A DNA stretch of 64,000 bases from Escherichia coli (GTDB lineage: Bacteria; Pseudomonadota; Gammaproteobacteria; Enterobacterales; Enterobacteriaceae), in assembly GCF_030013595.1 (NCBI RefSeq), contig NZ_CP122768.1; one strand, given 5' to 3'. The position numbers and the translations under genes were made by a program. The notes under the pieces are model-generated. The model was not told the origin of the DNA. It made no database searches and saw nothing but the letters and a program-made list of their open reading frames with translations. Position 1 is the stretch's first letter. Each line of letters opens with the position of its first letter. Shown here piece by piece: positions 7,424 to 58,567 of this stretch.

Positions 7424-8874
7424 TCAGAGGTCAAAGTTAGGTGCGACACACAACGTTTTTCCCTCAATAACCGGTACAACTCTGTTTTGTTCATACAGTA
7501 AATCCAGTAACCAGTTGATTTTATCCTTTTTCCGGAAACGGTTCGGACCACGCTGTAAAATGTCATTTTTTTTCATACAGAGGATCCCCTTCTCAATGCA
7601 ATAGCTTTTTATCCAGTTGAAAAGTTCAAGCTCCTCTGGAATGAGTCGCACAGGTACGGTCAGGGCAGGGTTGTCAAAAGTTAACGGATTAGACAACCGC
7701 ACATACTCATTACCGTACCATATTGCTAATTCTCTCGCCATTTCTGCAATGTAAGGGGAAATCTCCCCCTCCTCACCGCTCGAATGGTAAATAAGTCCTG
7801 CCAGTCTTGCCATATACTCTGCATTTTTAGCAGCATATTCCCGGCAATGTCTTAAAGGCCCCAATCCCCCCAGCTTCGATTCCACATCATTGTAATAATC
7901 CGTCCAGATTCTGGCAGCCTGAGGAGAAAAGTGAAGGCAACGTCGTTCACCACTCATCGCCAGACTTTCATCAATAAGCTCATTGATCCTCTGTTCAAAC
8001 AAATCCTGATACTGTGATGAATAATTATCTCCGGTTATTATCCTTGTCCCCTGCGTTGATGTTGGTTGACACATCAAAAACCTTGCATGATGTCCTGACG
8101 TTTTCACAAGTTCTTTTTTTCGCGTACAAAAACCTTTGTGGTAAACATCAGGCTGAATCATCGCCGACATCGTCAGTCTTGGCTCCTTCAAATTAATTCC
8201 GGGAGATGATTTCCTGTCGATGAAAAGAGAACCTCCATCCCACAAAGTGTTAATAATTCCCAGTTTACTCATGGCCCGGCTGTCAAAAATTCCCCCCCTT
8301 CACTGGATACAAGAGCAAAAGAACGATTGCTATCGGAGTAATATTTTAACATTCCCTCTATCGTTGTCTCATTAAAAATTGTTCGACGTATCTGCGGCGG
8401 AACAGGAGACTTATTCAGATGCGTTTCAAGCTCTGATTCTGTTGCCTTGTAATCTTTACCGGCACGAATCTCTTTATGAAATTTTGATTCCAGCGCTTTT
8501 TGTTTTTGCTCCCATATTTCCTTTTCTGTGCTGTAATTCTCAACCAGTTTCGCGTATTCTTCCGCCAGGGCTTCATCCCTGAGATAAAATGCTTTCATAA
8601 ACACTTTATCCACGGTCGTTTTCCTTTCACCAGAATCAGCCAGAATCAGAGAGTAAAGATTAACAGGCCCACGTAAATTTCCAGGTCTGCACACGTCAAT
8701 CTGATTCTGACAGGCAATTGAGATCGCTGTTAATGCGGATGTCGCCACCATAGCCAAAGGTGCCTGTGTATTTTTTTGAGTTTCAATTATTGCATTTCTC
8801 ACCAGCGGTGGTAGTGCATATATCGGATAAGGATTTTCTGGTGCAAGTAAGCACATAAAAGCCTCTCTTTTCAT
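7424..8874 (-). pseudogene. DUF3987 (YfjI-like) protein split into 201-aa and 282-aa reading frames at a G7 homopolymer/ATGA junction
   Basis: ORFs 8269..8874 and 7424..8272 lie in different frames; coding-strand G7 tract (plus-strand C7 at 8292-8298) sits 20 nt before the junction; adding one G would fuse them into ~483 aa. Confidence 0.55.
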
Positions 8875-9104
8875 TAATGGGTTAGTAAAGTAGCAGCAAC
8901 TCCCGCTATAATAGCGAAATAGCTGCTGTTCAGACCTAATGTTCTGAGAAATACAGAATATCTGTAGATCTGATGTTTAATAAACCGATAAGGTTAATTC
9001 AGTTCATACTGTGTTATTTACCACGAAATATCATTCATGTTTCTCATTCTTAACACCTCCTAAAATTATTTCACTAACACCTTCCCCCCGGTCTTTTTCC
9101 TTTC

Positions 9105-9332
9105 TCAGGAATCAGCCAGAACCATAGTGTAAATATTAACGGGCCCACGTAAATTTCCGGGGTTGCACACGTCAATCTGATTCTGACAGGCAATTGATAT
9201 CGCTGTTAATAATGATGTTGTAGTCATAGCCAGAGATGCTTTTTCATTGTGTTGAGTTTCAATTATTGCATTTCCAGTCATTGATGGTTGCGCATATACT
9301 GGATACGGAGTATCCGGTTTGATGTAAGACAT
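9105..9332 (-). pseudogene. truncated duplicate of the N-terminus of the DUF3987 gene
   Basis: 75-aa ORF ...GNAIIETQHNEKASLAMTTTSLLTAISIACQNQIDVCNPGNLRGPVNIYTMVLADS parallels ...RNAIIETQKNTQAPLAMVATSALTAISIACQNQIDVCRPGNLRGPVNLYSLILADS of ORF 8269..8874. Confidence 0.5.
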
Positions 9333-9437
9333 AAATATTTCCTTTTTTCGTAATAACTTTCGGTTATAGCAGCTATTTCCGCTACAATAGCAACAATAGC
9401 TGCTATACAGACTGGATATACTGAAAATACAGACAGT

Positions 9438-12985: not shown

Positions 12986-13061
12986 TGGTGCCGATAATAG
13001 GAGTCGAACCTACGACCTTCGCATTACGAATGCGCTGCTCTACCAACTGAGCTATATCGGC
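12986..13061 (-). tRNA. thrW: tRNA-Thr (anticodon CGU), thrW-like; island integration site at its 3' end
   Basis: Reverse complement reads GCCGATATAGCTCAGTTGGTAGAGCAGCGCATTCGTAATGCGAAGGTCGTAGGTTCGACTCCTATTATCGGCACCA: cloverleaf-compatible, anticodon loop ttCGTaa, CCA end. Confidence 0.93.
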
Positions 13062-30252: not shown

Positions 30253-30387
30253 ATATTTTTTATGTGAATAATCAATAGATTGAAAAACAGGCGGAAATGG
30301 TGTTTCCGGTCTGGCGGAAAAAAGCCTGCCGCTGAAAGCACAACACCGCCTGCAGGCGGTGTTGAGACTGATGACAAACGCAACACT

Positions 30388-30488
<101 letters not shown>

Positions 30489-34729: not shown

Positions 34730-36106
34730 TTAGCTGCACATTTCCAGCACCGAATCGAAAATCTCGGCCCCGGCGGAAATGACTTTCAGATTGGCTTCAT
34801 AAATTTGTTGATAGGTGATCAGGTTAACCGCCTCTTCGTCCATGCTGACGCCGCTGACGCTGCTCTGCTGGTTTTGCGCTGCGGAATAGACATTGGACGC
34901 GGCATCGACTTCCGTCTGGTTTTGCTGGCTGTAAATGCCGATATTGCTGATGATTGACGAGCACGCCTGCCCGACCGTCACGCTGCCGAGGTTGGCTATC
35001 TCCAGCGGTTCGGTGGAGATATTGATCAGCGCCTGTAAGTTGTCGCTGTTACCGCTTTCGTCCGGTGAACTGGAAAACGCCAGCTCATCGGCGGTGATAT
35101 CCGGGTTGACGGTCAGCGGGCCATCGGCGTTGCTGGCGTCATAAATAAACAGCGGCTCGCCGGGGTTGCCGTTGAGATCGTAGCCCTGCGCCAGTTGATT
35201 GTTGACCGCATCGGCAAACTGCGACGCCATGCTGTTGATGGTGTCGGTCAGCGGCGTCAGCACGTCGTTTTGATAATCAAACAGTGCGCCTAATGAACCT
35301 CCAGTGTCGGTGGTCATCGTCGAGGTGGTTCCGGCGAAGGTCAGCGACATGGTCGGCGTGCCGTCGGCGTTGGTTTCCAGCGCGATGGTCGAGCTTTGCT
35401 GCCCGCTCACCAGCGGTTGACCGTTTTTCAGGGTAACGTTGTAGTTGCCCTGGTCGTCGATATTGACCTGCACATCCATCATCCCGCTGAGTTCTTCCAC
35501 CATCTGGTCGCGGGCGTCGTACAGCGCGGAGGCGTTATCGCCGTTGGCTTCGGCCTGAGCGATTTGCTGGTTATAGCTGGCGATGCCGCTGGTGAGCGTG
35601 TTGATTTGCGACACCATCGCCTGCTGCTGGCTGATGATTTCCGTGCTTTGCGAGTCGATGTAATCCAGCGTGTTGTCGATACGCAGCGACAGCGCCCCGG
35701 CTTCGCTGATCACCTGTTCGCGCAGGGCGGAATCGTCAGGGCTGGTGGTCGCTTCGTTAAGGGCGGCGAAGAAGTTATCGAACCCGCCGCTCAGGCTGCT
35801 GTTATCGTCGCTCAGTACCGCTTCCAGTTGCGTGAGATACCCCTGCTGGGTGCTGTAATAGCCGTAATCGCTGGCGGCATACCACACCTGATTCACCTGA
35901 TACTGGTTAGAGACGCGGCGAATGCTGTCGACCTGCACGCCGTTACCGGCGCTGTTCGGCGAACCACCGCTGGCACCGATGGTGCTGATTTCTGCCACCT
36001 GACGGGTGTAGCCCGTAGTCATGGCGTTGGCGGTGTTTTGCGCCGTGACGTTCAGCTCCACCTGCGCGGTTGATGCGCCGCTGTAGCCGATGTTAATCAT
36101 GTCCAT
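34730..36106 (-). CDS. lfgK: FlgK-like hook-associated protein (HAP1)
   Basis: 458 aa, ...NTANAMTTGYTRQ... N-terminus and ...YQQIYEANLKVISAGAEIFDSVLEM C-terminus. Confidence 0.85.
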   Translation of the reverse strand: MDMINIGYSGASTAQVELNVTAQNTANAMTTGYTRQVAEISTIGASGGSPNSAGNGVQVDSIRRVSNQYQVNQVWYAASDYGYYSTQQGYLTQLEAVLSDDNSSLSGGFDNFFAALNEATTSPDDSALREQVISEAGALSLRIDNTLDYIDSQSTEIISQQQAMVSQINTLTSGIASYNQQIAQAEANGDNASALYDARDQMVEELSGMMDVQVNIDDQGNYNVTLKNGQPLVSGQQSSTIALETNADGTPTMSLTFAGTTSTMTTDTGGSLGALFDYQNDVLTPLTDTINSMASQFADAVNNQLAQGYDLNGNPGEPLFIYDASNADGPLTVNPDITADELAFSSSPDESGNSDNLQALINISTEPLEIANLGSVTVGQACSSIISNIGIYSQQNQTEVDAASNVYSAAQNQQSSVSGVSMDEEAVNLITYQQIYEANLKVISAGAEIFDSVLEMCS

Positions 36107-36182
36107 GTTGGATCCTTACCGGTAAATCGTGCCGGTTAAAAGCGGCGTGAAGATGGGGATTCTTAAGTGGATAATGGTGCGC

Positions 36183-36298
36183 GCTGATGCCCTCACCCCG
36201 GCCCTCTCCCACAGGGAGAGGGAGAAAACCTGCGCCATATTCACCTCCGCGCTCAATCGGTCCCCTCGCCCCTTTGGGGAGAGGGTTAGGGTGAGGGG
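36183..36298. repeat. GC-rich composite palindromic intergenic repeat (Box C-like class; name uncertain), copy A
   Basis: ccctcaccccggccctctcccacagggagaggg ... cccctcgcccctttggggagagggttagggtgaggg; inverted relative to copies at 38461 and 48730. Confidence 0.7.
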
Positions 36299-36311
36299 CA
36301 AAGCGCGCCCC

Positions 36312-36611
36312 TCATTTCCCCTTCGGCGACAACTGCTTCACAATCATCGCCGCGATCCCAATCCCGTGCTGCTGCGCCAGGGTGTTACACAACTCATCGT
36401 CATAAAACCCCTGCATCATGCGCACCGAATCGCTGTTAAACGGGTTATCTTTCGAATCGAACAACTCGTTGGTTTTGCGCATCTCTTTGAGCATATTGCG
36501 TAAAAAAATCGCCTCAAACTGTTCGGCGGCCTGCCTGATATCATTGGCCTGAACCTTCGGCCCCATTAACGCATCGCTGCCGTCAATCCCGCCGCTGCCG
36601 TTAACTTTCAT
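36312..36611 (-). CDS. lfgJ: FlgJ-like rod-binding domain protein, no muramidase domain
   Basis: 99-aa protein ...QFEAIFLRNMLKEMRKT...DSVRMMQGFYDDELCNTLAQQHGIGIA matching only the FlgJ N-terminal rod-binding domain. Confidence 0.75.
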   Translation of the reverse strand: MKVNGSGGIDGSDALMGPKVQANDIRQAAEQFEAIFLRNMLKEMRKTNELFDSKDNPFNSDSVRMMQGFYDDELCNTLAQQHGIGIAAMIVKQLSPKGK

Positions 36612-37711
36612 CAGATCACCTCCAGGTCGGCATCCAGCGCGCCCGCTTCATGCAGCGCCTGCAAAATCGACATAATGTCGTCCGGCGTCGCACCTAAACT
36701 GTTCAACGCATTAACCAACGTTTTCAGGCTGCTCGACTCCGGCAAACTTACCACGCCCGGACGGGCATGATTCACCGCAATATTGCTCTGCGGCGTTACC
36801 GCCGTGCGCCCGCCCGCAAAGGCATTCGGCTGGCTGACGTTGCTGGTTTCGTTAATCGAAACGGTCAAACTACCGTGCGACACCGCCGCCGCGTGCAGCG
36901 CAACGCCATCGCCCATCACCACCGTGCCGGTGCGCGAGTTAAACACCACGCGGGCGCGGATTTTCTCCGCCTGAACCTGCACATCGTCCAGTTGCGACAT
37001 AAACGCCACCCGCGCGCCGGGGCTGGTAGGCGCACGCACGGTAACGTTGGTGGAACTCTGCGCGGTGGCAATGCCGCCAAACGAGGCATTAATCGCCGCC
37101 GCAATGTTGTTGGCATCTTTAAACGACGGGCGTTTCAGGTTGAGGGTGATGGTATCGCCCATCTGAAAATCGCTGGGGATCTCGCGCTCCACCGTTGCGC
37201 CGTTAGGAATTAACCCGGCGGTTGGTGTATTAACCGTTACGCTCGAGCCGCTGGCCCCGGTGGCATTCATCCCACCCACCACCACGCTGCCCTGCGCCAG
37301 GGCATACACTTCGCCATCCGCGCCGTGCAACTGCGTAAGCAATAAAGTGCCGCCGCGAATACTTTTGGCATCTCCAATCGACGAAACGGTGACATCAATA
37401 GTCTGCCCGCGCGAGTACATCGGCGGCAATGTGGCGCTCACCGCCACCGCGGCGACGTTTTTCACCTTCGGGTCGATTTTATTCGGCAGCTGCACACCGA
37501 ACTGGCGCAGCATATTGGTGATGGTCTGGTTGGTGAATTTGACCTGATTTTTATCGCCGGTGCCGTCGAGGCCGACCACCAGGCTGTAGCCGACCAGTTG
37601 GTTTTCGCGCACACCCTGTACGTTGACCAGCGACTCCAGCGATTGCGCCAGCGCCACACCGGGCAGCGCCAGGCTTACGGCTACGACCACCGTCTTTATC
37701 CAGTTTTGCAT
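36611..37711 (-). CDS. lfgI: FlgI-like P-ring protein
   Basis: ORF trimmed to [22 protein letters not shown] signal peptide (GGAG upstream); FlgI family. Confidence 0.85.
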
Positions 37712-37725
37712 TGCACTCTCCGGCA

Positions 37726-38391
37726 TTAGATCGGGAACAGAGGATGGTTAAACAGCCGCGTCAGCCAGCCTGCGGCGTTGGCGTCGCTTAACGCGCCGCG
37801 TCCGGCATAGGAAATGCGGGCGTCGGCGATCCGCTGGGAGGAAACAGAGTTGTCGTTCTGGATATCGTCGGCGCGTACCAGGCCGCTCAAGCGGATGTAC
37901 TCATCGCCCTGGTTGAGGGTCAGCCATTTTTCGCCGCGAATTTCCAGGATGCCGTTGGGCTGCACCGCATGGACGGAAACGGTGATCTCCCCGCGCAGGC
38001 TGTTCTGCTGCTGGGAAGTGGCGCTGCCGTCAAAGTCGCGGTTGGCATCGATGGAGCCGGAAAGCTTATCTTTGGTGTGACCAAAAATGGTCGGTGCGCC
38101 GATGTCGACGGTGTTGTTTTTACCGAAGTTGGTTTTCGCCTGTTTGCTCGACTGGGTGGATTCTTCGAGGATCACCGTCAGGATATCGCCCACGCGGTAA
38201 GCCCGCCTGTCGGCGGTGAGCGACCAGTTGTAGCCAGTTTCAAACACGCCCCCGGCACGCCCGTCTGCCGGAGGCGGCGCTTCGGTTTTCGGTGGCGCAA
38301 AGTATGCGTCGTCTTTTTTGACCAGAATGGCCTGCGATTCACACCCGCTAAGCAGGGGAAGCAGCGCCACCAGCCAGAAATAATTTTTCAC
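37726..38391 (-). CDS. lfgH: FlgH-like L-ring lipoprotein
   Basis: [17 protein letters not shown] lipoprotein signal with lipobox; FlgH family. Confidence 0.85.
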
Positions 38392-38460
38392 GTTCTGCCT
38401 GTTTAGTGTTGCAGGCCACGGGGTGGCCGTTTTTTTGGTGGGTGCGGAGCCGATTTGTTC

Positions 38461-38576
38461 CCCTCACCCTAACCCTCTCCCCAAAGGGGCGAGGGGACCG
38501 ATCGAGCACAATGTTGCATACAGCGCCGGTCTGCTCCCTCTCCCTGTGGGAGAGGGCCGGGGTGAGGGCATCAGAC
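38461..38576. repeat. GC-rich composite palindromic intergenic repeat, copy B
   Basis: ccctcaccctaaccctctccccaaaggggcgaggggacc ... ctccctctccctgtgggagagggccggggtgaggg; reverse complement of copy A. Confidence 0.7.
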
Positions 38577-38596
38577 CGCACGTTGCCCCCACGCCC

Positions 38597-39382
38597 TTAC
38601 AGCGTCTGGCTGATGTACTGCAACATATCGTCCGCTGCCGACACCATTTTGGCGTTCATCTCGTACGCGCGTTGCACCGTAATCATCGCCACCATTTCGT
38701 TGACGATATCCACGTTCGAGCCTTCCAGTGCGTTGTCCTGCAAAGTGCCAAGCCCATCTTCGCCCGGCACACCTTCTGTCGGCTGACCGCTGGCGGCGGT
38801 TTCCAGATAGAGGTTGTCACCCTCGGCGGAAAGCCCCGCCGGGTTAGCGAAGTTAACCAGCGTCAGTTGCCCTAACTCGGTCACGTCGCTGTCGCCAGGT
38901 AAGATCGCCGTCACCGTGCCGTCCTCACCAAAAGCAACATTAGTCGCCCCCGCCGGAACGTCGATTTCCGGTTGTAACGGCAAGCCCTGCGAGTTGGTCA
39001 GCACGCCGTCGGCGTTCACCTGCAAGTTGCCGTCGCGGGTATAGGCGATATCGCCGTTGGCCTTTTGCACCTGTAAAAATCCCTGCCCCATAATGGCGAC
39101 ATTCATCGCGTTGTCGGTGGTTTCAACGTTGCCTTCGGTGAAGGTTTTCTGGGTGCCGACAATGCGCACGCCGCTACCGAATTGCAGCCCGGTCGGCATG
39201 ATGTTGTTCTGGTCGAGCATCGCGCCCGGCGCTTCCTGGGTCTGGTAGAACAGATCCTGAAACATCACCCGGTCGCGCTTGAAGCCGGTGGTGTTAACGT
39301 TGGCGATGTTGTTGGCAATCGCGCTCATTTCAGCATCCTGCGCCGAGAGGCCGGTTTTGCTGATCCATAGTGCTGCGTTCAT
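38597..39382 (-). CDS. lfgG: FlgG-like distal rod protein
   Basis: 261 aa, MNAALWISKTGLSAQDAEMSAIANNIANVNTTGFKRDR... and ...ITVQRAYEMNAKMVSAADDMLQ. Confidence 0.88.
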   Translation of the reverse strand: MNAALWISKTGLSAQDAEMSAIANNIANVNTTGFKRDRVMFQDLFYQTQEAPGAMLDQNNIMPTGLQFGSGVRIVGTQKTFTEGNVETTDNAMNVAIMGQGFLQVQKANGDIAYTRDGNLQVNADGVLTNSQGLPLQPEIDVPAGATNVAFGEDGTVTAILPGDSDVTELGQLTLVNFANPAGLSAEGDNLYLETAASGQPTEGVPGEDGLGTLQDNALEGSNVDIVNEMVAMITVQRAYEMNAKMVSAADDMLQYISQTL

Positions 39383-41441: not shown

Positions 41442-41524
41442 TGCCGGATGCGGCGAACGCCTTATCCGGCCTACAAAACCATGCAGTTTCATGTAGGCCT
41501 GATAAGCGAAGCGCATCAGGCAAT
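41442..41524. repeat. BIME (paired REP elements) between lfgE and lfgD
   Basis: ttgccggatgcggcgaacgccttatccggcctaca ... tgtaggcctgataagcgaagcgcatcaggca. Confidence 0.8.
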
Positions 41525-41537
41525 TTGGCACCGGACA

Positions 41538-42251
41538 TCACGCCACATCACTGTCGGCATCGGGTACGCCAAACTGGCTAATCATGGTGAACGGCACTTC
41601 GCCCACGCCTGCAACATTGAGCACCGGAGAGCCGCCGTCGAGCGGGATGCGTACATCTTCCACTTCGCCGGAAACTTCAATCGGCACCTCTTCTTCCCCG
41701 GTGTTGGTCACCACCGAGACGTCGTAATCACCCGGCGGGATACCGTAATCCGCCGGATTAATCGAGAAATCCACCTGGCCTGGCCCGACGGACGAACTGC
41801 CTTCCGGGATCAGCGACACCGTATAGTCATCGCCTGCGGCATCGGTAAAGTGGAGATCGGCGGTGGTACAGGCGTCGTCAAGCGTGGCGCGACCATTAAT
41901 GGTCTGGTCGCTCACCTGCAAGGCGGTGGTCTGCACCATAATGTCGTCACCCACCAGGTTGCCGAGCGCCATTACCTGAATGTTGCTCATCAGCACCGCG
42001 TTGGTGTTGGCCTGCACGCTCATCTCTTCCATCATCGCCACCTGCGCCATCGACGAAAGCTGGTCGATGTATTCGGTGGCGTCAGTCGGGTCGGTCGGGT
42101 CCTGGTTTTGGATCTCGGCGACAAACAGCGTCAGGAAGGTATCGACGGGCGAGCTATCGCTGCTGCTTGTCGTGTCGCTGGCCGCCACGTTGTTGCTTTC
42201 CGCCGTGGCGGTCGGCTGCGGCGATTGCGCATTCAGCACCAAGGTATTCAT
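41538..42251 (-). CDS. lfgD: FlgD-like hook capping/scaffold protein
   Basis: 237 aa with FlgD-like N-terminus ...VDTFLTLFVAEIQNQDPTDPTDATEYIDQL. Confidence 0.8.
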   Translation of the reverse strand: MNTLVLNAQSPQPTATAESNNVAASDTTSSSDSSPVDTFLTLFVAEIQNQDPTDPTDATEYIDQLSSMAQVAMMEEMSVQANTNAVLMSNIQVMALGNLVGDDIMVQTTALQVSDQTINGRATLDDACTTADLHFTDAAGDDYTVSLIPEGSSSVGPGQVDFSINPADYGIPPGDYDVSVVTNTGEEEVPIEVSGEVEDVRIPLDGGSPVLNVAGVGEVPFTMISQFGVPDADSDVA

Positions 42252-44026: not shown

Positions 44027-45451
44027 ATGTCTGAATTTGAATTGCTCGTGAAAGATCTTCTTTTAAAATCAGAAGAAGACGAGAAAAAGCGACAAGAAAA
44101 AGATCGAGAATTAATTTCAAAGGTTCTTGAAATCTATGATCAAAAATATGTTGCAGAACTCCTACGAAAAGTAGGAAAAAATGAATGGAGCAGAGAAACA
44201 CTTAACCGTTGGATAAATGGTAAGTGTAACCCTAAACAATTAACTTCTGCTGAGGAAACTTTACTTCGAAAGATGCTTCCAGAACCTCCCGAACATCATC
44301 CTAACTATACATTTCGTTTTATTGATTTATTCGCAGGGATTGGTGGTATTCGTAAAGGCTTCGAAAATATTGGTGGGCAGTGTGTTTTTACTAGCGAATG
44401 GAATAAAGAAGCGGTAAGAACCTACAAAGCTAATTGGTTTAATGATGAACTAAATCATAAATTTAATCTTGATATACGAGAAGTCACTTTAAGTGATAGA
44501 GATGATGTTTCCGAAATGGAAGCCTATAATCATATAGACAAAAATATTCCAGATCATGATGTCCTTCTGGCCGGTTTTCCATGTCAGCCCTTTAGTCTGG
44601 CTGGGGTAAGCAAGAAAAATTCTCTGGGGCGTGCACATGGTTTTGAATGTGAGGCACAAGGAACACTATTTTTTGATGTCGCTCGAATTATTAAATCAAA
44701 AAAACCAGCTATTTTTGTGCTTGAGAATGTGAAGAACCTTAAAAGTCATGATAAAGGTAAGACTTTTAAAGTCATCATGGAAACACTCAATGAATTAGGG
44801 TATGAAGTCGCCGATGCTGGTGTGACTGGCTCAGATGATCCTAAAATTATAGATGGAAAACATTTTTTACCCCAACATCGTGAGCGTATAGTGTTGGTAG
44901 GATTTCGTAGGGATCTAAATATTCACAAGGATTTCACGTTACGAAATATTAACCGCTTTTACCCTCAAAACAGGCCAACATTTGGTGAATTATTAGATCA
45001 TGATGTTGACGACAAATATATTTTGACTCCAAGGTTATGGGAATATCTTTACAATTATGCAAAAAAACATGCAGCAAAAGGAAATGGATTTGGTTTTGGT
45101 TTAGTGGATCCTAAAAATCCAGATAGTATCGCACGAACGCTGTCTGCTCGTTACCATAAAGATGGCTCTGAAATACTGATCGATCGTGGCTGGGATAAGG
45201 CTGTCGGTGAAATCGATTTTAGTAATCCAGCGAATCAAGAGAATCGACCAAGAAGACTGACACCTCATGAATGTGCCAGGTTAATGGGTTTTGAAAAACC
45301 AGGGGGAAGACCTTTTAGAATACCTGTATCAGATACTCAAGCTTATAGACAATTTGGGAACTCAGTTGTTGTGCCAGTATTTGAAGCTGTAGCAAGATTA
45401 CTAGAACCGTACATACAAAAGGCTGTCAGCATGCAAGTTATTAACGATTAA
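44027..45451 (+). CDS. DNA (cytosine-5)-methyltransferase, Dcm/M.EcoRII-like (predicted CCWGG specificity)
   Basis: 474 aa with motifs [15 protein letters not shown] (I), [10 protein letters not shown] (IV), ENVKNL (VI), [10 protein letters not shown] (X); collinear with E. coli Dcm as recalled; ACGGGGG RBS; AT-rich compared with flanking flagellar genes. Confidence 0.85.
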
Positions 45452-45474
45452 TAATAATTAACTTTCACTATTGT

Positions 45475-45498
45475 GAGGCCTTTTTTATTAAAGGCCTC
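45475..45498. terminator. bidirectional hairpin between the convergent methyltransferase and endonuclease genes
   Basis: gaggccttttttattaaaggcctc perfect stem-loop in the 87-bp convergent intergenic region. Confidence 0.6.
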
Positions 45499-45538
45499 TA
45501 AATATATAATCATAAGTTATTATAAGTATACTTTTATA

Positions 45539-46744
45539 TTATATAAAATCTTCATACAGCGTTATTAACTGTGTGATAAAACCCTCTAACGTTAATAATC
45601 CATCCCTGATTTCCTCCGGATATTTTTTATGAAGAGGGGAAGGTACAACCAAGGTGACACCTTCAGCTCTCATTTCGTTAAATTGAGCAACTGAGACACC
45701 CTCTTGTAAGGTAAACAAATATATTTTGTTGATTTTATTTGCTTCATTGAGTGCCTGACGCCACCGATCCTTACATGTTGTTTTTACAGCAAGCATACGG
45801 AGTTTTTCTCTTGGAAAGTGATCATCATGGTAAGCTGCCGCTGATGGAAAAAGAAAATCGGGTTTCTTTTTTCCTTCAGTAATACATTGAGTAGCAAAAT
45901 GATGCAGTCCATGCTCAATAAAAATTTGCTCAAGATGTAGCTCCAGTGATTTCCCGGCTCGAGATTTTCTTCGATTACTAACAGAGTTAGCCATAGCTAT
46001 AAAATCATCTACAGAACCAAACCCTTGACGGATGATGTCCAGTACGTGAATTTCTTCAACCATTAGAAAGAGATCATATTCAATACGGCGGCGTTCTAAA
46101 AGTTGGTCATCTGGACTGGTTACGCCTGTTGGGTAATAACCCGCAGCATATTGAATAATCTCTAAGCCAGAAGGAAAGCTATGTTTCCAGCTTTCCGGAA
46201 TAACATATTCCTTTTGAGAGATTTTTGGCCTTGATGCGAGTACACCAAGTATTTCACTGGCAGGCCCAAACATTAAAGTTCCAGGAATGATCTCCCCAAT
46301 AGCTGATTCCAGTACATCCTCTTCTTCTGGGCTAACACAAACCCATACATCAACACTTTTGCTGTCTCTCCCTGGCTCATGTTCAAACGCAAGCACAGAC
46401 AAAGCACCTGTATTTTCCGGATCCTGTAGGGGACTGCCAGCCCCCCACCGAGTGATGCGTTTTTCATTTCTTGTTTGCCCGAAATACTTATTATTGTAGT
46501 AAATAGCGCGAACCTCACTGTCTACACATTCATGAGAGGAATAAGTTGCGCGCAATAAAACCGAAGGATTTTTTTCTGACGTATGATCTATAGATGGGAA
46601 AAGTTCAGCGACGATACCAGAAGGGATATATACCCCCACTTGATGCCCTCCTGTTGCACCAGTGTCGTTTGCTGAAAGACGTTTAATATAGAGATAGTTG
46701 TTACCACCGACCTTATCAAGCAGCCAATCTTGTAATCCTGACAT
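45539..46744 (-). CDS. type II restriction endonuclease, EcoRII-like
   Basis: 401 aa; N-terminal ...YIKRLSANDTGATGGHQVGVYIPSGIV... and overall collinearity with R.EcoRII as recalled; convergent partner of a Dcm-like methylase. Confidence 0.65.
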   Translation of the reverse strand: MSGLQDWLLDKVGGNNYLYIKRLSANDTGATGGHQVGVYIPSGIVAELFPSIDHTSEKNPSVLLRATYSSHECVDSEVRAIYYNNKYFGQTRNEKRITRWGAGSPLQDPENTGALSVLAFEHEPGRDSKSVDVWVCVSPEEEDVLESAIGEIIPGTLMFGPASEILGVLASRPKISQKEYVIPESWKHSFPSGLEIIQYAAGYYPTGVTSPDDQLLERRRIEYDLFLMVEEIHVLDIIRQGFGSVDDFIAMANSVSNRRKSRAGKSLELHLEQIFIEHGLHHFATQCITEGKKKPDFLFPSAAAYHDDHFPREKLRMLAVKTTCKDRWRQALNEANKINKIYLFTLQEGVSVAQFNEMRAEGVTLVVPSPLHKKYPEEIRDGLLTLEGFITQLITLYEDFI

Positions 46745-46797
46745 AAGACATCCTTATTTTTGCATAGTATCCGATTCAGATTTTTCCACATATCCAT

Positions 46798-47651: not shown

Positions 47652-47778
47652 CGACCATTCCTTCCCCCATCGCGGAAACGGATTTTCCGCCTGATTCACA
47701 ATCCTTTGTTTTTGATTATAAAAAATCACGGCACGCTTATTGCACATTCCGCAAAGTAATAAAGACTGGAAGCCACCT

Positions 47779-48609
47779 ATGAGTTTTATTGAATGTTACG
47801 AACCGGAATACGTGCGCAATTTTATGACGCAATATCCCGATTCGCCTTTGTACATCCGCAAGGTGTGGAAAAACGAGATTCGCCTGAGCCTGATGCTGAC
47901 AGAGCCAGAAAGTTGCGAAGCGGTGCTCAACGATGCCAGGGCCTTTGATTTACAGCTCACCTACCGCCCGGCGGAAGAAAATGCCGCAGAGCTTTCCGCG
48001 CGCGATGCGATAGTAAACCAGGTCATTTTGAGTACCCTCACGCTCCCCGATTTAACCCCAGAGCTTTCACTATATGCCATCGGGATTTTACTCTCCCGCG
48101 CCAGCAAAATGCCGGGCAGAGACGGAGATATTCTTGCCCGTTTGACGACGCTGCCGCAGGCGCTGGCCGATCATGCGAAAAAAGGCACGCTACAGGCACA
48201 GTTCGCCCAACTTCCGCCCGTGCCACAGCTGGCGCGTCACCTGGCCACGCTACTCGGGAGTTTTACGTTTGACTGGTCGATTTTGCCGGAAAGCCCGCGC
48301 AAAACTTCGCTGCCGTTGCAGATGCCTTTGCTGGCGCTACATGACGCCAACAGCGAAGCCCTGGTGCAACAGCAGCTTCAGGCTCAGTGGCAAACCACCT
48401 GGCAACAGCATTTTGCCACCGCGCCCTGGATGATGCGTAACTGGCTGATTTACCGCGTTTACCATGAGGTGATTGGACAGGCAGACGGAGCAGATTATTG
48501 CCCGCTGGTGTGCGATTTTTATCTTATCCGCACGTTAATCAGTTTTATGGACGCTGGATGGTTCTCCGCTGCGACAGGAGGATATTTTCGCCCTTTTTGC
48601 GGTGTTTGA
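47779..48609 (+). CDS. hypothetical protein in the Flag-2 variable region
   Basis: ORF 47740..48609 begins at a TTG; first ATG with GGAAG RBS is 47779 (MSFIECYEPEYVRNF...); no recognisable domain. Confidence 0.55.
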   Translation: MSFIECYEPEYVRNFMTQYPDSPLYIRKVWKNEIRLSLMLTEPESCEAVLNDARAFDLQLTYRPAEENAAELSARDAIVNQVILSTLTLPDLTPELSLYAIGILLSRASKMPGRDGDILARLTTLPQALADHAKKGTLQAQFAQLPPVPQLARHLATLLGSFTFDWSILPESPRKTSLPLQMPLLALHDANSEALVQQQLQAQWQTTWQQHFATAPWMMRNWLIYRVYHEVIGQADGADYCPLVCDFYLIRTLISFMDAGWFSAATGGYFRPFCGV

Positions 48610-48729
48610 ACGCTGGCGAGAGAGTGAAAATGCGCTGTTTATTCGCCAGCAAATTCAGTCGTTATGTGCGGCAGAGCCGCTGCTTTCAGCATTTTCGCTG
48701 CTGACGTGAGTCGCTCTGTGCGCGCTTTT

Positions 48730-48845
48730 CCCCTCACCCTAACCCTCTCCCCAAAGGGGCGAGGGAACCGATCGAGCACGGTGTTAAAATCGGCGCTGGT
48801 TTTCTCCCCTCTCCCTGTGGGAGAGGGTCGGGGTGAGGGCATCAG
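48730..48845. repeat. GC-rich composite palindromic intergenic repeat, copy C
   Basis: ccctcaccctaaccctctccccaaaggggcgagggaacc ... cccctctccctgtgggagagggtcggggtgaggg, same orientation as copy B. Confidence 0.7.
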
Positions 48846-48888
48846 CACGCACATTCATCACATTCACCCCTTAACTCACCCAGACACC

Positions 48889-58526: not shown

Positions 58527-58567
58527 GCCCCCTCACCCTAACCCTCTCCCCGGATGGGGCGAGGGGA
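58527..58567. repeat. partial copy (one arm) of the GC-rich palindromic repeat, copy D
   Basis: ccctcaccctaaccctctccccggatggggcgaggggaca in the lafK-lfiM divergent intergenic region. Confidence 0.65.

Follow-up and report, generated by a model that had tools for sequence, protein, structure and literature searches.

BoxC-family repeats in intergenic gaps of the Escherichia coli Flag-2 locus, including a rare inverted pair around lfgJ-lfgI-lfgH

We analyzed a GC-rich repeat that occurs at four sites, here called copies A to D, in a 64-kb stretch of Escherichia coli DNA (the window), which we identified as the Flag-2 (lateral flagella) locus. We consider it probable, at roughly 85%, that these copies are BoxC hairpins sitting in permissive gaps between cistrons, with an effect on RNA that is at most modest, and that they do not constitute an inversion switch. 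Judged as a discovery this is minor: the repeat family was already in the E. coli catalogues, and the inversion proposed for it is unsupported. The element itself was already known; what is added here are its conserved tails, its behavior as a unit of ∼126 to 130 bp, and the presence of REP/BIME repeats in the same two gaps.

All four sites are intergenic relative to the annotated genes; copies A to C are composites and copy D is a single half-element. Copy A (36177 to 36308) lies in the lfgJ/lfgK gap, with a type-B motif on the minus strand (36190 to 36222) and a type-A motif on the plus strand (36263 to 36297), and in the mRNA sense it starts 4 nt past the lfgJ stop codon. Copy B (38460 to 38581) lies in the lfgG/lfgH gap and is inverted relative to copy A, with its type-A motif on the minus strand (38461 to 38495) and its type-B motif on the plus strand (38536 to 38568); it starts 15 nt past the lfgG stop codon in the mRNA sense. 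The genes bracketed by the two copies, lfgJ-lfgI-lfgH (36312 to 38391, minus strand), were assigned from their open reading frames, Pfam and the RefSeq annotation of a 99.9% identical strain as those for the rod-binding protein LfgJ (36312 to 36611; Pfam Rod-binding), the P-ring protein LfgI (36611 to 37726; Pfam FlgI), and the L-ring protein LfgH (37726 to 38391; Pfam FlgH), each encoded on the minus strand. Copy C (48718 to 48852) has the orientation of copy B (motifs at 48731 to 48765 on the minus strand and 48807 to 48839 on the plus strand) and is flanked by a glycosyltransferase gene and a lysine-N-methylase-like gene with a frameshift; this site is likewise occupied in E. coli 042. Copy D (58530 to 58565, minus strand) is a lone type-A motif, matched by the TM_ECO pattern given below, in the divergent gap between a sigma-54 activator gene (lafK-like) and a FliM/FliN-family gene. 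The original prediction of a two-palindrome composite, with an inverted pair around lfgJ-lfgI-lfgH, was right in outline: the four sites lie essentially where it had placed them, and the genes between copies A and B are homologues of FlgJ, FlgI, and FlgH. We note that REP-like inverted repeats are also found elsewhere in the window, at 30369 to 30470 and 41456 to 41540.

By their sequence, copies A to D belong to the BoxC family, which has also been published as PIT elements and as TM_ECO. BoxC repeats are GC-rich and intergenic and are scattered through the genomes of E. coli and related bacteria. The TM_ECO/BoxC pattern, CCCTCNCCC-N3-6-GGGNGAGGG-N3-GGGNGAGGG (Holder et al. 2015, PMC4666352), had exactly 7 matches in the window and 0 in 100 dinucleotide-preserving shuffles. 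A mismatch to the BoxC consensus would have refuted this identity, and the repeats matched when checked. The original prediction had also called for a comparison with catalogued E. coli repeats, in which BoxC is listed as a known family; the comparison identifies the element as BoxC, PIT, or TM_ECO (PMC4666352; PMC2267715), and the finding is therefore resolved as a known element. The BoxC motifs here are 33 to 36 nt long, and an inverted pair of motifs flanking a linker of ∼40 nt makes up the composite, a unit of ∼125 to 130 bp (∼126 bp) with a type-A motif (TTA loop) and a type-B motif (CCG loop) on opposite strands. Copies A and B have the TTA and CCG loops, copy C combines TTA with a TCG variant in its type-B motif, and copy D has type A alone. 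Such inverted type-A/type-B pairing has been described at five loci of E. coli K-12, a genome with 23 BoxC motifs in 4.64 Mb (Holder et al. 2015, PMC4666352). That density predicts ∼0.3 motifs per 64 kb, versus the seven present in this one flagellar locus. BoxC was found in 5,425 of 5,426 complete E. coli genomes, at a median of 16 places per genome and at 18 places in K-12. According to Holder et al. (2015, PMC4666352), BoxC is linked neither to gene class, gene distance, or operon position nor to transposons, phages, or plasmids. The G-rich strand of a consensus oligonucleotide formed an intrastrand triplex in vitro by CD and NMR, a structure that was undetected in double-stranded DNA and in vivo (PMC4666352). 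Searched against Rfam at the gathering score, the repeats matched no family; the only matches were a tRNA and ES036, the latter on a REP.

Copies A and B had been described as exact reverse complements of one another, which is not borne out. The arms at 36177 to 36298 and 38460 to 38581 are 89% complementary over 122 nt; they match perfectly in two blocks, one of 41 nt and one of 43 nt, which are separated by a diverged linker. The coordinates first given for them were one base off register, so that 36183 to 36298 matched the reverse complement of 38461 to 38576 at 40 of 116 positions. With the short inverted tails GTGCGCGC...GCGCGCAC included, the three composites span ∼36177 to 36308, 38460 to 38581, and 48718 to 48852, and the tails outside the motifs are conserved (GTGCGCGCTGATG / CAAAGCGCGCAC). 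The closest relatives of copy A are found at other loci (92% identity, versus 89% to copy B); because copy A is nearer to these than to copy B, we rejected the possibility that it is a recent copy of B. The alignments suggest instead that copy A arrived independently of copy B and is a rare allele.

Each of the two gaps has several alleles, and the strain variability of BoxC loci holds here. At the lfgJ/lfgK gap (site A), BoxC was present in only 30 of 5,426 genomes, in forward orientation in the window, Rb-50, and Z1323 and in reverse in 06-00048. The sampled strains without BoxC at this site all carried REP/BIME repeats (1 to 4 BIME units in 10 strains), with the exception of PCN033, in which the site is empty; therefore, no element is required there. 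At the lfgG/lfgH gap (site B), BoxC-type alleles were found in 192 of 1,274 Flag-2 genomes, counted at a coverage of at least 80% of the site-B query. The other sampled alleles held a single REP, a truncated REP, or a REP with extra sequence, and E. coli W carries a 66-bp internal expansion. REPs were identified by pattern search in the alleles that other strains carry at both gaps, and a palindromic repeat of either family was present in 22 of the 23 alleles read (13 strains for site A, 10 for site B). The BoxC-type lfgG/lfgH allele also contains a GC hairpin followed by a run of seven T (38414 to 38435, plus strand, antisense to the operon), which the REP-type allele lacks. With ∼30 genomes carrying it, the inverted A/B pair is a rare allele. 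Taken together, these data suggest that the gaps are permissive slots in which palindromic repeats are gained, replaced, expanded, and lost, but the allele differences could also have arisen if lineages swapped entire gap alleles by homologous recombination, instead of by insertions. Both gaps form a natural allelic series (empty, REP, one to four BIME units, BoxC in either orientation) that can be used for asking whether hairpins alter the fate of polycistronic mRNA.

As RNA, each composite was predicted by minimum free energy to form a single long hairpin in either orientation, the type-A arm pairing with the type-B arm over ∼45 to 50 bp. The folds of copies A, B, and C had energies of −86.5, −79.4, and −84.9 kcal/mol and z scores of −5.5, −4.3, and −8.4, respectively, and composite hairpins overall ranged from −73 to −86 kcal/mol (z, −4.3 to −8.4); that of copy D was weak (−25.2 kcal/mol; z, −2.5). 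Despite the high stability of the hairpins, the suggestion that the repeats act as mRNA stabilizers or attenuators is unsupported, as published tests of single PIT elements detected neither promoter nor terminator activity and no effect on RNA polymerase (summarized in PMC4666352). Because single elements were inactive in these published tests, the copies may do nothing at all. Between 35900 and 38900 we found no sigma-70-like site and no terminator-like site on the operon strand, and intrinsic termination by the elements is therefore unsupported by the sequence. A strict sigma-28 pattern had two matches in the 64-kb window, of which the lone one upstream of a flagellar gene, the putative promoter motif TAAGAATCCCCATCTTCACGCCGCTTT (TAAG-N15-GCCGCTTT; 36165 to 36139, minus strand), precedes the lfgK start codon by 33 nt and is 12 nt away from the copy A edge. 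The block holding this motif is almost invariant across five aligned strains. Since the motif is located between copy A and lfgK, copy A may mark a transcription-unit boundary, and the placement of both copies within a single operon is only partly safe, with the doubt falling on the stretch between copy A and lfgK.

Any effect of copies A and B would probably be placed at the RNA level and be at most modest. Where the upstream cistron ends in a stable hairpin, that mRNA segment could be shielded from exonucleases, and the copy A hairpin, being so near the lfgJ stop codon, could also hinder termination at lfgJ, as reported for REP elements. Newbury and colleagues reportedly observed in 1987 that REP elements stabilize upstream mRNA, and Liang, Rudd, and Deutscher are said to have found in 2015 that REPs no more than ∼15 nt from a stop codon reduce expression of the upstream gene. 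It is conceivable, if doubtful, that the composites are selected intercistronic RNA hairpins, interchangeable with REP/BIME, that tune how strongly rod, ring, and hook-associated genes are expressed relative to one another; equally tentative is the proposed means, either protection of upstream mRNA or stalled termination at lfgJ and lfgG. The occupancy of nearly all gap alleles read, the start of both copies so close behind stop codons, and the very stable hairpins in the mRNA sense are consistent with such a role, and the position of copy A next to the sigma-28-like motif is where a hairpin at the 3′ end of an lfgB-J transcript would be expected. Against it stand the empty site in PCN033, the inactivity of single PIT elements, and the reported absence of any link between BoxC and gene class, gene distance, or operon position (Holder et al. 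2015, PMC4666352), and intergenic gaps may simply tolerate such repeats.

A second alternative, which we regard as unlikely, is that the BoxC composite is a REPIN-like nonautonomous mobile element copied by a trans-acting enzyme; we think no better of the accompanying proposal that it enters hairpin-prone intergenic targets without target-site duplication and competes with BIMEs for slots. The composite does have two inverted short palindromes that fold with their spacer into one hairpin, and its tails are conserved beyond the motifs. Site A has been seen empty, filled in either orientation, or filled by BIMEs, and no target-site duplication was visible at the boundaries when filled and empty alleles of site A were compared. 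(A classical MITE was rejected on this ground: the inverted termini GTGCGCGC...GCGCGCAC are present, but copy A shows no direct duplication relative to the empty PCN033 site.) Head-to-tail arrays of the 126-bp unit, with up to ∼9 copies, occur in Pseudocitrobacter faecalis, a high-copy host as is Enterobacter asburiae LF7a, and paired arms were found in many Enterobacteriaceae genera, in Pseudomonas and Devosia, and in metagenome-assembled genomes of Planctomycetota, Verrucomicrobiia, and Deltaproteobacteria. However, tblastn with K-12 RayT detected no RAYT homologue in the window or in the 1.03 Mb surrounding 120 loci that carry the composite, although a search of these regions, rather than of whole genomes, is a weak test. 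No transposase-like gene lay between motifs, the four motif-flanked genes being ordinary housekeeping genes or a spurious ORF, and Holder et al. (2015, PMC4666352) saw BoxC associated with neither transposons nor phages nor plasmids. Moreover, replication slippage can yield tandem arrays and expansions, recombination between lineages may underlie the allele differences, and our literature search found no paper linking BoxC to REPIN or RAYT. We are more skeptical still that what replicates, in a REPIN-like element with a putative mobilizing enzyme, is the ∼126-bp composite and not the single 37-nt motif. If true, this would account for the alternative occupancy of the gaps, the presence of both orientations at one site, the Pseudocitrobacter tandem arrays, and the near identity of arms from distant phyla. 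As the composite behaves as a discrete unit, found in tandem arrays and in several phyla, a REPIN-like origin is testable; to our knowledge, three decades have brought no accepted account of where BoxC comes from or what it does.

The original prediction also saw in the A/B pair a substrate for inversion of the intervening 2.2 kb, but that the pair inverts lfgJ-lfgI-lfgH, whether as a recurrent rearrangement or to turn lateral flagella on and off in the manner of phase variation, is highly improbable: the perfect blocks are long enough for rare RecA-dependent exchange and TM_ECO-carrying loci are reported to be unusually variable, yet the copies are not exact, only ∼30 genomes have the pair, and the ∼43 kb of the locus examined contains no annotated invertase or recombinase gene. 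Inversion would also place lfgHIJ antisense to their promoter and leave three essential basal-body genes silent, and nothing guarantees a return to the original orientation. The synthetic left junction expected after A x B exchange was found at 80% or more query coverage in 0 of 5,426 complete E. coli genomes, which show the majority orientation only, so that rare inverted subpopulations would be invisible in them. In one strain, 61% coverage was reached only through a 19-nt chance extension. Deletion of lfgHIJ between the repeats was rejected as well, the synthetic lfgK-repeat-lfgG junction being present in 0 of the 5,426 genomes. We infer that the A/B pair does not serve as a programmed inversion switch; RecA could in principle invert the 2.2-kb segment through the 41- and 43-nt identical blocks, at the cost of inactivating lfgHIJ, but no such inversion was seen.

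Like the site-specific invertible segments fimS and Hin/hix, the A/B pair consists of inverted repeats around a DNA segment of a surface-appendage system, but unlike them it has no recombinase annotated in the ∼43 kb of the locus examined, its repeats are ∼120-nt members of a dispersed family rather than short specific sites, it brackets whole structural genes and not a promoter, and a single orientation was seen in the 5,426 genomes. REPINs (Bertels and Rainey 2011, PMC3116915) share with the composite an inverted palindrome pair and spacer that form one long hairpin, lone motifs resembling decayed remnants (as copy D does), and presence that varies by strain. Unlike in REPINs, no associated RAYT was found around the composites, and BoxC arms are spread over several phyla, in contrast to the vertical, within-lineage inheritance described for REPINs. 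REP/BIME repeats resemble BoxC in being intergenic and palindromic, in having inverted motifs of two alternating types, in forming tandem clusters, and in sitting just past stop codons inside operons, here in the same two gaps. Their sequence is unrelated to BoxC, as the REP (PU) consensus GCCGGATG...CCGGCCTAC, given also as GCC(G/T)GATG...(C/A)GGCCTAC, is absent, by eye, from copies A to D, and REPs come with a cognate transposase, RayT, and with binding proteins that have been identified, neither of which BoxC has. From BoxC/PIT/TM_ECO (Bachellier et al. 1990s; Hoyne et al. 2000; Holder et al. 2015, PMC4666352) nothing essential differs: like the elements in the window, these repeats are strictly intergenic, number ∼16 to 23 motifs per E. 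coli genome, and occupy strain-variable loci.

The repeats belong to the lateral flagella locus (Flag-2) of E. coli. The 3 kb surrounding them match E. coli strain HCP5S3_I2 at 99.9% identity, and most of this sequence is present in 1,273 of the 5,426 complete E. coli genomes searched. The genes concerned are on the minus strand: lfgK (34730-36106), lfgJ for the rod-binding protein (36312-36611), lfgI for the P-ring (36611-37726), lfgH for the L-ring (37726-38391) and lfgG (38597-39382), with lfgF and lfgE next in the listed order; the lfgK-lfgJ gap (site A) and the lfgH-lfgG gap (site B) each measure 205 nt. Elsewhere in the locus, between the flgA-like lfgA and the flgM-like lfgM as annotated in a 99.9% identical strain, genes for a DNA cytosine methyltransferase and a type II restriction endonuclease (44033-46750; 28133-30850 in L001, the near-identical strain's locus) look like a restriction-modification cassette inserted in the flagellar cluster. 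In the near-identical strain, the lysine-N-methylase-like gene immediately upstream of repeat copy C (47766-48696; L001 31867-32797) is annotated as frameshifted, phoE is interrupted by an internal stop, and only remnants of prfH and rtcB are present. We also noted a direct repeat of 294 nt with 77% identity (8585-8878 and 9061-9354) among phage- or island-like ORFs upstream of a tRNA gene (12989-13061), which probably belongs to an integrated element that has degraded.

As the original prediction held, the element is found at four sites, copies A (36177-36308, site A), B (38460-38581, site B), C (48718-48852) and D (58530-58565), with A inverted relative to B, C oriented like B, and D a half-element. 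Copies A and B are not the exact reverse complements first proposed, and their initial pairing was off register by one base; their complementarity is 89% across 122 nt (36177-36298 versus 38460-38581), and it is perfect in terminal blocks of 41 and 43 nt that enclose a diverged linker. A multi-strain alignment revealed short conserved tails, GTGCGCGCTGATG... and ...CAAAGCGCGC(AC), and since these reach past the palindromes, the full unit is ∼125 to 135 bp.

Comparison with catalogued E. coli repeats identified the element as BoxC. Each half matches exactly the TM_ECO motif CCCTCNCCC-N3-6-GGGNGAGGG-N3-GGGNGAGGG, a pattern with seven matches in the window and none in 100 shuffles. TM_ECO corresponds to the repeat named BoxC in the 1990s and to the PIT element that Hoyne, Maher and colleagues described; K-12 has 23 occurrences, all between genes, as type A with a TTA loop or type B with a CCG loop (Holder et al. 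2015, PMC4666352). PMC2267715 also includes BoxC in its list of known stem-loop families of E. coli. With a 131-nt copy-B query, the family was detected in 5,425 of 5,426 genomes, which have a median of 16 such places each (18 in K-12). The element is catalogued, species-wide and already known. Its density is higher here, as the 64-kb window holds seven BoxC motifs versus ∼0.3 expected from K-12's 23 per 4.64 Mb, and the four Flag-2 sites make up a sizeable share of the 11 to 13 places per genome matched by copy-B queries in the closest strains.

We examined allele classes at site A in 13 strains. The gap was empty (23 nt) in PCN033, carried one to four BIME units (two to eight REPs) in ten strains, including W, O26:H11 11368, A22, 118UI, XDL and D8, and held a BoxC composite (one type-A and one type-B motif, inverted around a linker) in the window orientation in Rb-50 and Z1323HEC0462 and in the opposite orientation in 06-00048. 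Site A is a hot spot of repeat turnover. A short-flank query found BoxC there in only 30 of 5,426 genomes (27 window-like, 2 with internal expansion and 1 reversed), and at site B a BoxC-type query reached at least 80% coverage in only 192 of 1,274 Flag-2 genomes. The inverted A/B pair is therefore a minority configuration of at most ∼30 genomes. The non-BoxC alleles examined at site B comprised an 82-nt gap with one REP (two strains), a truncated REP (one strain) and a REP with extra sequence (one strain); E. coli W (L018) has a composite expanded by 66 bp. In this composite and in the site-A composites of VCSW5 and VCSW7 we observed internal partial duplications of ∼63 to 66 bp, equivalent to an extra half-unit, which suggests slippage-type expansion inside the element. 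Copy A is no local duplicate of B, since it is closer to BoxC copies elsewhere (92%) than to B (89%). The operon has a palindromic repeat in a third gap as well, between lfgD and lfgE, where REP/BIME-type inverted repeats lie at 41456-41540; others are located near lafA (30369-30470), with an Rfam match to ES036 (CssrF) at 30409-30451.

Possibly, as originally proposed, the composites act on RNA as mRNA stabilisers or attenuators. As single strands in either orientation they are predicted to fold into one long imperfect hairpin, with the type-A arm paired with the type-B arm (-73 to -86 kcal/mol; z of -4.3 to -8.4 versus shuffles). These very stable hairpins directly follow stop codons in the mRNA sense, copy A starting 4 nt past that of lfgJ and copy B 15 nt past that of lfgG, and 22 of the 23 alleles examined at the two gaps carry a REP/BIME or BoxC palindromic repeat. 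However, site A can be empty, as in PCN033, single PIT elements lacked promoter and terminator activity in published experiments, and no link was found between BoxC and either the class of neighboring genes or their operon position (Holder et al. 2015, PMC4666352). Neither a terminator-like site on the operon strand nor a sigma-70-like promoter was found in the repeat region. Also in favor of an RNA-level role, a sigma-28-like motif, TAAG-N15-GCCGCTTT (36165-36139, minus strand), lies 12 nt from the end of copy A and 33 nt upstream of lfgK; the window contains only one other strict match, and the motif belongs to a block almost invariant across five strains. In the primary flagellar system, flgKL has a class-3 promoter. 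The predicted motif suggests that lfgKL is under its own late promoter, and by analogy an lfgB-J transcript may have its 3′ end at copy A, which would then not lie, as first described, in the interior of a single operon. The strand antisense to the operon has a GC hairpin, GGCCACGGGGTGGCC, with a run of seven T behind it, immediately upstream of lfgH (38414-38435, plus strand); this feature is in the BoxC-type gap allele and missing from the REP-type allele.

It is unlikely that the composite is a REPIN-like element. Two inverted palindromes and a spacer forming one hairpin recall REPIN architecture, single motifs look like remnants, and site A is empty or filled in either orientation with no target duplication visible, differences that homologous recombination between lineages may also explain. 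Against this, no cognate transposase was found, the genes flanked by motifs are ordinary, and no association of TM_ECO with mobile elements was seen (Holder et al. 2015, PMC4666352). A search of 1.03 Mb surrounding 120 loci with composites detected no homologue of the K-12 RayT, and our literature search found no paper connecting BoxC to REPINs or RAYTs.

The suggested inversion of the intervening 2.2 kb, and with it any role of the A/B pair as a switch, is unsupported, as the predicted left junction (lfgK flank, repeat and reverse complement of the lfgH-side flank) reached 80% coverage in 0 of 5,426 genomes, in assemblies that are blind to rare subpopulations, and no recombinase gene is annotated across ∼43 kb of the locus. 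The junction predicted for an lfgHIJ deletion was likewise absent from the 5,426 genomes. Identical blocks of 41 and 43 nt would permit rare RecA-dependent exchange, and inversion by this route would turn three basal-body genes antisense to their promoter.

Beyond E. coli, scanning a single genome from each species for paired arms at 60- to 90-nt spacing returned at least 120 stretches. The matches listed include many genera of Enterobacteriaceae (Enterobacter, Pseudocitrobacter, Kluyvera, Pantoea, Phytobacter, Pluralibacter and Leclercia), Pseudomonas and Devosia, and metagenome-assembled genomes of Planctomycetota, Verrucomicrobiia and Deltaproteobacteria. Among them the arms are near-identical, a conservation partly selected by the query because the scan pattern fixed the arm sequences, and outside enterobacteria the linkers are unrelated. 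Pseudocitrobacter faecalis carries head-to-tail composite arrays (L046 3897-4292; L055 4675-5803) of 3 to ∼9 copies with a period of 126 bp and 88 to 93% matches, whose unit has the E. coli-type tail CATCAGCGCGCAC and the linker start GACCGAT. These arrays argue that the composite behaves as a discrete amplifiable unit. Both this unit behavior and the series of alleles found in the lfg gaps A and B offer modest but usable leads.

The composite in the window is exactly like the inverted pairs described at five K-12 loci, where one type A lies near one type B, and the variability at sites A and B is the same as that reported as a general trait of TM_ECO loci (Holder et al. 2015, PMC4666352). In their amplification as units, BIMEs behave much like the BoxC composite arrays.
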